From IMG/VR virus record IMGVR_UViG_3300013947_000375, positions 1-49,477 of that record: 49,477 bases of DNA; one strand, 5' to 3'. This DNA is from a virus. The translations under genes and the position numbers were made by a program. Below the pieces are notes generated by a model, which saw only the letters and a program-made list of their open reading frames with translations, made no database searches and was not told where the DNA came from. Positions 2,902 to 3,483 of this stretch are shown one piece after another (position 1 is the stretch's first letter; the number at the start of each line of letters is the position of its first letter).

Positions 2902-3483
2902 ATGAGAACACCTAAATTGGAAAGAGTCCCTAGTTTGGATCTTGTGATTATTCATAAGCTGCGGGATATAGGAGTACCCGCTAATATTAAGGGGTATGAC
3001 TACATTAAAGAGGCGATCGGCTTGGTTCTCGAAGATCCTGATCTTCTGGGGTATATTACTAAGGGCCTTTATCCTGCAGTAGCTAAGGAGTACGAGACTA
3101 CTTATGGCCGGGTAGAAAAGGGTATTCGCCATGCCATTGAAGTTACCTTTGACCGAATTGATCATGACACTGTTAAGGAGTGTTTTGGTAATTCCTATAG
3201 CCCCCTGAAGGGTAAGCCTACTAACTCGGAGTTCATCGCCACTGTGGCTGAACTGGTTCGAGAAGAGGTAGGGGCTTATAATGGGAAGCTGGAAAGTAGA
3301 TTGACTACTTCTGATGGGGCTGTTACAGTCCTGTACTCAGGGGAGAGTACTACTTTCGGCCCTTGTAAATGTTACCATGTACAGAATAAGCATGGAGTAT
3401 GCTGGGGTACTAAAGAGAGAGAACCCTGTAACTGTGGTGGTGAAAGGTCTTTGTGTGATCATTACCTTGAGTCAAGAGTATAG
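2902..3483 (+). CDS. Spo0A C-terminal (effector/DNA-binding) domain protein without a receiver domain, plus a Cys-rich C-terminal extension
   Basis: by-eye alignment to the B. subtilis Spo0A C-domain: IGVPANIKGYDYIKEAI, LLGYITKGLYPAVAKEY, RVEKGIRHAIEV, KGKPTNSEFIATVAE; the ORF begins about 10 aa before this domain. Confidence 0.85.
   Translation: MRTPKLERVPSLDLVIIHKLRDIGVPANIKGYDYIKEAIGLVLEDPDLLGYITKGLYPAVAKEYETTYGRVEKGIRHAIEVTFDRIDHDTVKECFGNSYSPLKGKPTNSEFIATVAELVREEVGAYNGKLESRLTTSDGAVTVLYSGESTTFGPCKCYHVQNKHGVCWGTKEREPCNCGGERSLCDHYLESRV

Follow-up and report, generated by a model that had tools for sequence, protein, structure and literature searches.

Why would a phage carry the DNA-binding half of the sporulation regulator Spo0A without the half that receives the host signal, and what is a cysteine-rich tail doing at the end of such a protein? 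These questions are raised by spo0A_C, a gene encoding a 193-amino acid (aa) protein in the IMG/VR virus record IMGVR_UViG_3300013947_000375, of which the whole stretch of 49,477 nucleotides (nt) was analyzed in this study and is referred to as the window. The encoded protein is composed of a Spo0A effector domain, a linker and a small Cys module. We favor, with somewhat more confidence than doubt, the reading that it is a phage Spo0A effector without a receiver, which interferes with the Spo0A regulon of the host as a competitor or repressor rather than as a faithful activator, and that its tail is a separate module fused in frame.

The identity of the domain is well founded. The first-pass annotation, made by eye, had matched about 115 aa of the protein to the C-domain of Spo0A, and profile and structure comparisons bear this out. 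The Pfam profile Spo0A_C (PF08769) matches residues 17-117 over positions 2-102 of its 104 positions, with an E value of 2.7e-36; the score of 124.2 bits lies above the gathering threshold of 25, and nearly the full length of the model is covered. A phmmer search of the Protein Data Bank (PDB) retrieved the Bacillus Spo0A C-domains 1lq1 and 1fc3 with E values of about 3e-31 over residues 11-122. In an AlphaFold model based on a 46-sequence alignment, the predicted local distance difference test (pLDDT) score is above 90 for residues 11-133, and the Foldseek superposition of this model on 1lq1/1fc3 gave a target-normalised template modeling (TM) score of 0.82-0.91 and a root mean square deviation of 1.6-2.4 A. 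The identity to cellular Spo0A is 51-54% over about 112 residues, and among cellular proteins the domain is matched best by Spo0A of Clostridia from gut and rumen (Lachnospiraceae, Oscillospiraceae, Eubacteriales), with 41-54% identity.

The protein is receiver-less, as had been claimed from its short N-terminus. The Spo0A equivalog model of NCBIfam (TIGR02875) is matched only at positions 143-258 of 262, with 133.3 bits, which is below its cut-off of 200. The Pfam receiver profile PF00072 has no match on the ORF (open reading frame) at 2902-3483 or on the 196-aa ORF upstream of it. A receiver hidden Markov model (HMM) was built from the receiver halves of cellular Spo0A (91 full-length hits) and detected a cellular positive control with an E value of 4e-56; among the 1002 six-frame stop-to-stop segments of the whole window it found nothing (best E value 1.8). 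A receiver hidden by a frameshift or an alternative start is ruled out by this six-frame search together with the receiver-free upstream ORF. The exact 193-aa protein was called on 6 contigs from independent samples and different assemblers, and an assembly artefact is thereby ruled out. Ratios of nonsynonymous to synonymous substitution rates (dN/dS) between the spo0A_C of the window and four other phage copies range from 0.04 to 0.12, which denotes strong purifying selection.

Although the fold is retained, the phage proteins depart from cellular Spo0A at positions that cells do not change. An alignment was made from the six closest phage proteins, the 91 full-length cellular Spo0A proteins and the C-domain of Bacillus subtilis Spo0A, whose numbering is used for the substitutions below. 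The recognition helix SRVERAIRH is conserved to 100% at eight positions and to 99% at one position in the 91 cellular proteins. The window protein carries S210G, R214K and A215G in this helix, at three sites which are 100% conserved in the cellular set and in B. subtilis. Each of the six phage proteins has at least one recognition-helix substitution at a site that is 100% conserved in cells. We take E213, R214 and R217 to be the residues that contact the bases of the 0A box.

A further group of changes falls within positions 227-240. Eight residues there (G227, D228, T231, L232, Q233, Y238, T239 and V240), each at least 95% conserved in cells, are replaced in all six phage proteins, with I, S or N in the place of G227, while F236 and G237 are retained. 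This surface is altered yet conserved within the phage clade (FGNSYSP). Common to the six proteins are H162R, H169N, R177K, W224F, Y238N, T239S, V240Y, D258E and L262E, and the substituted sites are otherwise 95-100% conserved from Clostridia to Bacillus. The window copy has H169N, R177K, S210G, R214K, A215G, W224F, G227I, Y238N, T239S, V240Y and D258E; the helix-turn-helix (HTH), R211, E213, R217, H218, F236, G237, A257 and the KPTNSEFIA signature are kept. The retained fold and most of the HTH, combined with the altered 227-240 surface and the loosened recognition helix, would fit a competitor, a repressor or a re-targeted regulator better than a constitutive activator. The first-pass annotation had proposed that the phage copy could force or jam sporulation without input from the phosphorelay. 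This is reasonable and has a precedent, as the isolated Spo0A DNA-binding domain binds its legitimate targets without phosphorylation (PMC3485338); the constitutive spoII activation known from B. subtilis truncations, however, is not inferable for this protein, because it changes residues that are invariant in cellular Spo0A and is not merely truncated. For the same reason a faithful, constitutively active Spo0A should not be assumed.

The tail has a different history from the domain in front of it. The homology to Spo0A ends near residue 126, and the extension beyond counts about 67-70 aa. The closest relative, P0001, is 94% identical, has 127 aa and stops at the end of the Spo0A homology. 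On the contig of P0001 (L001), a 138-aa Lar-like gene and then a 120-aa gene are located between spo0A_C and the tRNA genes, and the C-terminal 43 residues of the 120-aa protein share 70% identity with residues 150-192 of the window protein. In the related locus L088, the corresponding 120/121-aa gene follows spo0A_C and overlaps its stop by 8 nt, and in L095 it follows after a 72-aa gene of the DnaJ-type CxxCxGxG kind. At the DNA level, window positions 2881-3280 align with L001 2389-2788 (89% identity) and window positions 3392-3695 with L001 3499-3832 (77%). The identity of 89% to both L001 and L095 extends up to window position 3278-3280, and the breakpoints against L095 (3278 and 3391) are nearly the same as those against L001. 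Between the breakpoints 3278-3280 and 3391-3392, about 110 nt in the window stand for 525-710 nt in the relatives. Neither the DNA nor the protein sequence of the linker resembles any part of the sister loci, and the reading frame of the fusion is open to the same stop position as that of the donor gene. The stretch around a second promoter-like site, directly after the stop, is 77-80% identical in the sister phages and constitutes the distal breakpoint of the fusion.

According to these alignments, two genes were fused in frame by deletion or replacement, and the tail is the C-terminal module of the neighboring gene, a member of a widespread and uncharacterized phage family. The earlier claim that the Cys- and His-rich tail of about 70 aa is foreign to Spo0A holds in this respect; the tail is a module fused on from next door and not an extension evolved on Spo0A. 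The region between spo0A_C and the tRNA genes is a hot spot for indels, in which five or more arrangements occur (L088, L095, L001, the window and L002/L089); the tails in L002 and L089 are shorter and unrelated, and the one in L002 ends in ESRV too. The fused state is derived and rare, because the 90% cluster of the window protein contains one fused sequence against three unfused 127-aa sequences and the cluster of the donor 120-aa gene counts 16 variants. It is real, because the identical protein was found on six contigs from independent samples.

The extension possesses six Cys residues (155, 157, 167, 176, 178 and 185) and three His residues, and all six Cys as well as the GT/KE core are intact. 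An exhaustive phmmer search with residues 147-193 against 1.84 billion cluster representatives found the module in at least 173 protein clusters at E values of 1e-3 or less; a word-indexed search with the 70-aa tail returned a single homologue, and the family is visible only by the exhaustive search. The module, of about 40 aa, follows the pattern CxCYH-x(6-10)-CWGTKE-x-E-x-CxCGGD-xx-KCDFYPEKR. Invariant in it are five Cys, one Gly and one Thr; Ser sometimes takes the place of the second Cys. The C-terminal module of the window protein fits C-x-[CS]-..-C-x-G-T-..-C-x-C-x-G-..-C with C155, C157, C167, G169, T170, C176, C178, G180 and C185, has every invariant position and the same length, and is 45-70% identical to family members, examples of which are P0121, P0122, P0272 and the UniProt entry A0A8S5VJD1 in BFVD.

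The 97 proteins with the strict pattern carry the module mostly at the N-terminus (53) or the C-terminus (35), and nine have it in an internal position. A total of 67 stand-alone module proteins of 40-79 aa were found by profile search, none of which has a Pfam domain or a name. The 104 longer members have DUF551 as a partner eight times, and Lar, metallophosphatase, DUF3310, the N-domain of dATP/dGTP diphosphohydrolase and DUF4314 once each; in the 120-aa protein of L001 the partner is a phrog_6072-type domain. Fusion of the module to Spo0A_C was found only in the window lineage among the best 150 clusters. Two module members viewed in their contigs are placed among small early and nucleotide-metabolism phage genes.

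A structure prediction of the extension, which the first-pass annotation had called for, was run with a 64-sequence family alignment and resulted in a compact mini-domain with a beta-hairpin (mean pLDDT 81.8); in the full-length model, made before the family was assembled, the tail reaches a pLDDT of 40-50, too low to be informative. The module probably binds a metal, either as zinc or as an iron-sulfur cluster, because five or six invariant Cys residues occur in an intracellular protein and the fold, predicted by a method in which metals are not represented, is compact. Assignment of the tail to a known zinc finger or zinc ribbon was rejected, since it has no match in Pfam, PHROGs, PADLOC, PDB sequences or PDB folds: the profile search of PDB sequences gave a best E value of 4.7 and the Foldseek search of the PDB one of 5.1. 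Foldseek against BFVD retrieved only uncharacterized gut siphovirus proteins, and the motif was not found in a literature text search. Branch values of the nonsynonymous rate (dN) for the module, derived from pairwise values, are about 0.15 for the window, 0.04 for L001 and 0.19 for L088. There is no sign of decay of the module in the window, because the six Cys residues are intact and the branch is not unusually long.

The promoter named in the first-pass annotation has gained weight from the sister phages. The sigma-A-type site TGGACA-18 nt-TATAAT in front of spo0A_C is jointly the best-scoring site in the first 5.2 kb. Its -35 and -10 hexamers are invariant in five lineages (the window, L001, L002, L088 and L089), and so is most of the 55 nt around them; the coding DNA of the five lineages is only 75-89% identical. 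On comparative grounds, the case for a real host-type promoter in front of spo0A_C is good. An imperfect inverted repeat overlaps the -35 hexamer, and it is the sole site of the form GTGGAC-N4-GT(C/T)CAC in the window. It is conserved as a perfect palindrome in L001, L002, L088 and L089 and has the TCCAC core in common with the TTTCCACA repeats described below. It is listed as a possible operator.

Candidate DNA targets were sought throughout the window. The reverse complement of TTTCCACA is TGTGGAA, which corresponds to the 0A box with C4 changed to G. The repeats of TTTCCACA reported earlier at 1537-1564 are real: three copies end a non-coding element upstream of the dCMP deaminase gene. The five lineages do not differ in the triple repeat or in some 110 nt preceding it, and the element as a whole is nearly invariant among them, with flanking genes of only 70-90% identity. 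Counted over the genome, TTTCCACA/TGTGGAA occurs 11 times against 2.17 expected from dinucleotide shuffles. A genome-wide TTTCCACA regulon was rejected, as the excess vanishes under a higher-order background and the other eight copies have no common context; only the triple repeat is a real feature among these copies. The TTTCCACA repeat stays constant while the recognition helices of the phages carrying it differ (K214/G215, K214/D215, R214/A215, H218P), so that no co-variation is seen, and a link between the triple repeat and the Spo0A_C protein is possible but unsupported. The element has no match in Rfam, and RNAalifold predicted a long hairpin for 1432-1566 without compensatory changes, the sequences being too similar for covariation.

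Features of the window and of two sister loci. Positions refer to the window unless a locus is named; residues are those of the 193-aa protein.
Feature	Position	Strand	Remarks
Complete ORF, ATG start, 193 aa plus stop	2902..3483	+	Spo0A_C domain, linker, Cys module
Ribosome-binding site AGGAGG	2888..2893	+	8 nt before ATG; read from sequence
Sigma-A-type promoter-like site TGGACA-18 nt-TATAAT	2839..2868	+	11/12 consensus positions
Imperfect inverted repeat GTGGAC-AAGA-GTTCAC	2838..2853	.	Overlaps -35 hexamer; candidate operator
Spo0A effector (DNA-binding) domain, residues 1-126	2902..3279	+	Colinear with 127-aa stand-alone proteins of sister phages
Recognition helix, residues 69-77 (GRVEKGIRH)	3106..3132	+	B. 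subtilis S210-H218 (SRVERAIRH)
Residues 86-99 (IDHDTVKECFGNSY)	3157..3198	+	B. subtilis 227-240
Linker, about 24 residues (NGKLESRLTTSDGAVTVLYSGEST)	3280..3351	+	pLDDT 40-53 in full-length model; predicted disordered
Cys module, residues 151-193 (TFGPCKCYHVQNKHGVCWGTKEREPCNCGGERSLCDHYLESRV)	3352..3480	+	Putative metal-binding mini-domain
Second strong promoter-like site TTTACA-17-TATACT, upstream TG	3488-3516		Directly after ORF stop, ahead of tRNA cluster
tRNA cluster	3615-4021		Met-CAT, Gly-TCC, Gln-TTG, Leu-TAG
Sigma-70-family factor (regions 2 and 4)	823-1371		Weak, sub-threshold similarity to SigE, SigK, SigF, SigG
Non-coding element, about 135 nt	1432-1566		Upstream of dCMP deaminase gene; ends TATAG(T), then three TTTCCACA repeats (1537, 1545, 1557)
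196-aa protein, Cys clusters at both ends	2235-2825		phrog_33402; no Pfam domain
Nucleotide-metabolism genes	1617-2147, 30885-31469, 34634-37081, 37081-37809, 38570-39226, 42465-43133, 43130-43681		
189-aa protein	47396-47965		Weak similarity to SleB-type cell-wall hydrolase family (PF07486) and PHROG endolysin families
Two small ORFs	43602-44042 and 45170-45520		Match only NAD+-binding Ia domain of DNA ligase / C-terminal end of ADP-ribosylglycohydrolase
Slot between spo0A_C and 120-aa gene, L001	L001 2804-3220		Lar-like restriction-alleviation domain fused to DnaJ-type CxxCxGxG zinc-finger segment
Slot between spo0A_C and 120-aa gene, L095	L095 3407-3625		72-aa zinc-finger part only; nothing in this slot in L088

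The 49.5-kb window is a complete, circularly permuted phage genome, as the genes at its end run straight into its first genes in locus L004. It encodes the small and large terminase subunits, an SPP1-type portal and a sigma-70-family sigma factor. A block on the minus strand comprises a family-A DNA polymerase (PolA) fused to a UDG-superfamily domain, a primase-helicase, an SNF2 helicase, a PD-(D/E)XK nuclease, ThyX, a second thymidylate-synthase-like protein, a MazG-like pyrophosphohydrolase, an HD protein and a DUF1599 protein. Four tRNA genes are located directly downstream of spo0A_C. The uncultured phage is probably virulent, because neither an integrase nor a repressor turned up among the scanned ORFs of the window, and it encodes its own DNA replication proteins. 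A search of IMG/VR for related loci returned only one, which is distant.

In the related phages, the sigma factor is always found about 1.5-3 kb upstream of spo0A_C. The gene of the 196-aa protein is upstream of spo0A_C in every lineage examined, mostly adjoining it, with a small ORF in between in L003 and L095, and it may be functionally linked to spo0A_C. The gene order sigma factor, dCMP deaminase, 196-aa gene and spo0A_C is kept in five lineages. The genome also contains a dense set for nucleotide metabolism, made up of dCMP deaminase, DUF1599 ('nucleotide modification associated'), PolA-UDG, the thymidylate-synthase-like protein, the MazG-like protein, ThyX and the HD protein, which together suggest that a pyrimidine in the DNA of this phage is replaced or hypermodified. 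The hydrolase family to which the 189-aa protein shows weak similarity is used in spore cortex lysis too. The two small ORFs in the table may be counter-defence genes related to NAD or ADP-ribose, or gene fragments.

In the reading that we favor, Spo0A_C would be transcribed from its own conserved promoter of the host sigma-A type, and, lacking a receiver, the domain would bind 0A-box-like DNA regardless of phosphorelay activity in the host. It would thereby disturb the Spo0A regulon of the host during infection and, acting as a competitor or repressor at Spo0A sites, would jam or re-tune sporulation. The Cys tail would be a separate, probably metal-binding module of a kind that phages attach to many small proteins. 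A competitor or repressor is preferred because residues that never change in cells are lost from the presumed sigma-A contact helix and from parts of the recognition helix. Several points weigh against this reading. Its direction depends on residues 227-240, which we take to be helix alpha-E, contacting sigma-A and needed for the sigma-A-dependent spoII promoters. The recognition-helix changes might abolish 0A-box binding or redirect it, and the canonical 0A box TGTCGAA is not enriched in the phage, with 1 found against 2.35 expected in 49.5 kb. The fused copies are all identical in sequence, so that selection on the fusion itself is not measurable from them, and the fusion could be a neutral accident. 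No near match to the phage was present among 50,697 deposited phage records and no close prophage among 185,579 GTDB representative genomes; as the host we infer, from the cellular matches to the domain, a spore-forming member of the gut Clostridia, and its sporulation likewise. A functional test of any phage Spo0A_C was not found in the literature searched.

Two other roles of the domain have to be weighed. The protein may be a constitutive activator like the receiver-deletion alleles of B. subtilis, driving the host into sporulation so that the phage genome is trapped and carried in the spore. The strong host-type promoter and the retention of R211, E213, R217, F236, G237, A257 and KPTNSEFIA are in line with such an activator, the bypass of phosphorylation by the isolated DNA-binding domain (PMC3485338) would permit it, and it forms one arm of the hypothesis advanced in the available passages of PMC10294663. 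We nevertheless consider it unlikely. Substitutions are present at positions 227, 228, 231-233 and 238-240 and at D258, all of which are conserved to 95% or more in cells; A257V, at the neighbor of D258 in B. subtilis Spo0A, leads to loss of sporulation through failure at spoIIA/spoIIG while repression of abrB is kept (PMC9195935); and a phage that looks virulent, with no lysogeny genes, would gain little for its lytic cycle from commitment to the spore. The Spo0A fold may instead have been recruited as a regulator of the phage's own genes, possibly together with the phage sigma factor, with little effect on host sporulation. The candidate operators would then be the TTTCCACA triple repeat or the palindrome over its own -35 hexamer. 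Every phage copy examined has a recognition-helix change, as would follow from a target other than the host 0A box, and the alpha-E surface is changed but kept within the phage clade. Spo0A contacts G2, C4 and G5 of TGTCGAA base-specifically (PMC3485338), and it is base 4 that is changed in TGTGGAA. The conservation of the triple repeat with its upstream region in five lineages and the constant gene order also fit, but the repeat does not co-vary with the recognition helices, and the remaining eight copies of TTTCCACA share no context and lose their enrichment under a higher-order background. We regard this recruitment, too, as improbable.

The tail, too, has a rival explanation. It may be a functionless by-product, in that the deletion of the genes between spo0A_C and the tRNA cluster by chance left the final 43 codons of the neighboring gene in frame, with the protein working exactly like the 127-aa forms, an explanation that deserves serious thought even if we lean away from it. 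It would suit an indel hot spot with at least five arrangements, in which L002 and L089 bear unrelated short tails, as well as the single fused sequence against three unfused variants in the 90% cluster and a linker that has no homologue and is predicted to be disordered. Yet none of the six Cys is missing and the GT/KE core is whole, the frame is open to the stop position of the donor, the branch of the window does not exceed that of L088 in length, the 8-nt overlap of the two genes in L088 suggests co-expression, and the fused genome was recovered from several independent samples. An artefact or pseudogene, whether an assembly chimera or a decaying host-derived fragment, has nothing in its favor beyond the unusual architecture and is refuted by the 6 contigs, the purifying selection, the conserved promoter and ribosome-binding site, and the gene order kept in five lineages. 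At the other end stands an adaptive fusion, quite improbable in our judgment, in which the Cys module serves as a metal- or redox-sensing or a dimerising unit and replaces the receiver as the input or oligomerisation device. If this were true, Spo0A activity would be set by something other than phosphorylation, and the module would be a portable adaptor on many early phage proteins, perhaps docking them on a shared host target, for example RNA polymerase. The 120-aa protein that the sister phages make separately would, on this view, bind phage Spo0A_C physically, since proteins that are encoded apart in one genome and joined in another are often interaction partners.

In many gut Clostridia, persistence and transmission are under the control of spore formation, which in addition shelters the cells from phages. 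The locus offers a test set taken from close phages, with the 127-aa form, the Cys-module fusion, the short-tail forms and natural substitutions at base- and sigma-contact positions. From a comparison of these forms it should become clear whether the sporulation program of the host is activated, blocked or ignored by phage Spo0A_C. It would also provide an entry point to a widespread, Cys-rich module of phages that lacks all annotation.

Homologues of spo0A in human-gut phage genomes, with the effector domain and without a receiver, were described by Schwartz, Rodriguez-Ramos, Shaffer, Flynn, Daly, Wrighton and Lennon (mBio 2023, PMC10294663). The available passages of that paper put forward the hypothesis that phage spo0A influences sporulation without a host signal, bypassing the phosphorelay. 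The central idea of a receiver-less phage Spo0A that bypasses the phosphorelay is thus already published, and the fusion to a Cys module is the new part. As far as those passages go, the genes described there and the one in the window are alike in being phage-encoded, limited to the effector domain and assigned the same proposed role; the Cys-module fusion and the substitutions at the recognition helix and at 227-240 are absent from them. By tblastn, 13 further spo0A_C genes were found in GenBank phage records from human faecal samples, and PHROGs contains two families of phage Spo0A_C, phrog_37855 and phrog_24603. Receiver-less proteins with two tandem Spo0A_C domains were also observed (P0006 with 243 aa, P0007 with 201 aa, and L008 6001-6839); the tandem domains could replace receiver-mediated dimerisation on tandem 0A boxes.

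Cellular Spo0A (TIGR02875; 1fc3, 1lq1) has the fold in common with the window protein, whereas the receiver with its phosphorylation site is present only in the cellular protein and the extra C-terminal module only in the phage protein. The receiver-deletion and isolated C-domain constructs of B. subtilis (sad-type alleles; Spo0A-DBD) likewise have a DNA-binding domain freed of inhibition by the receiver, but they keep the native recognition helix and sigma-contact surface, which the phage protein does not. A parallel in strategy is given by the phage homologues of sporulation-type sigma factors (Schwartz et al., mSphere 2022, PMC9429907), whose ectopic expression reduced spore yield according to the available passages of PMC10294663. 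In both cases the phage possesses a copy of a host sporulation regulator, and the window has a sigma factor too. The sporulation sigmas, however, belong to another protein family and act in compartment-specific transcription, whereas Spo0A_C concerns the initiation step.

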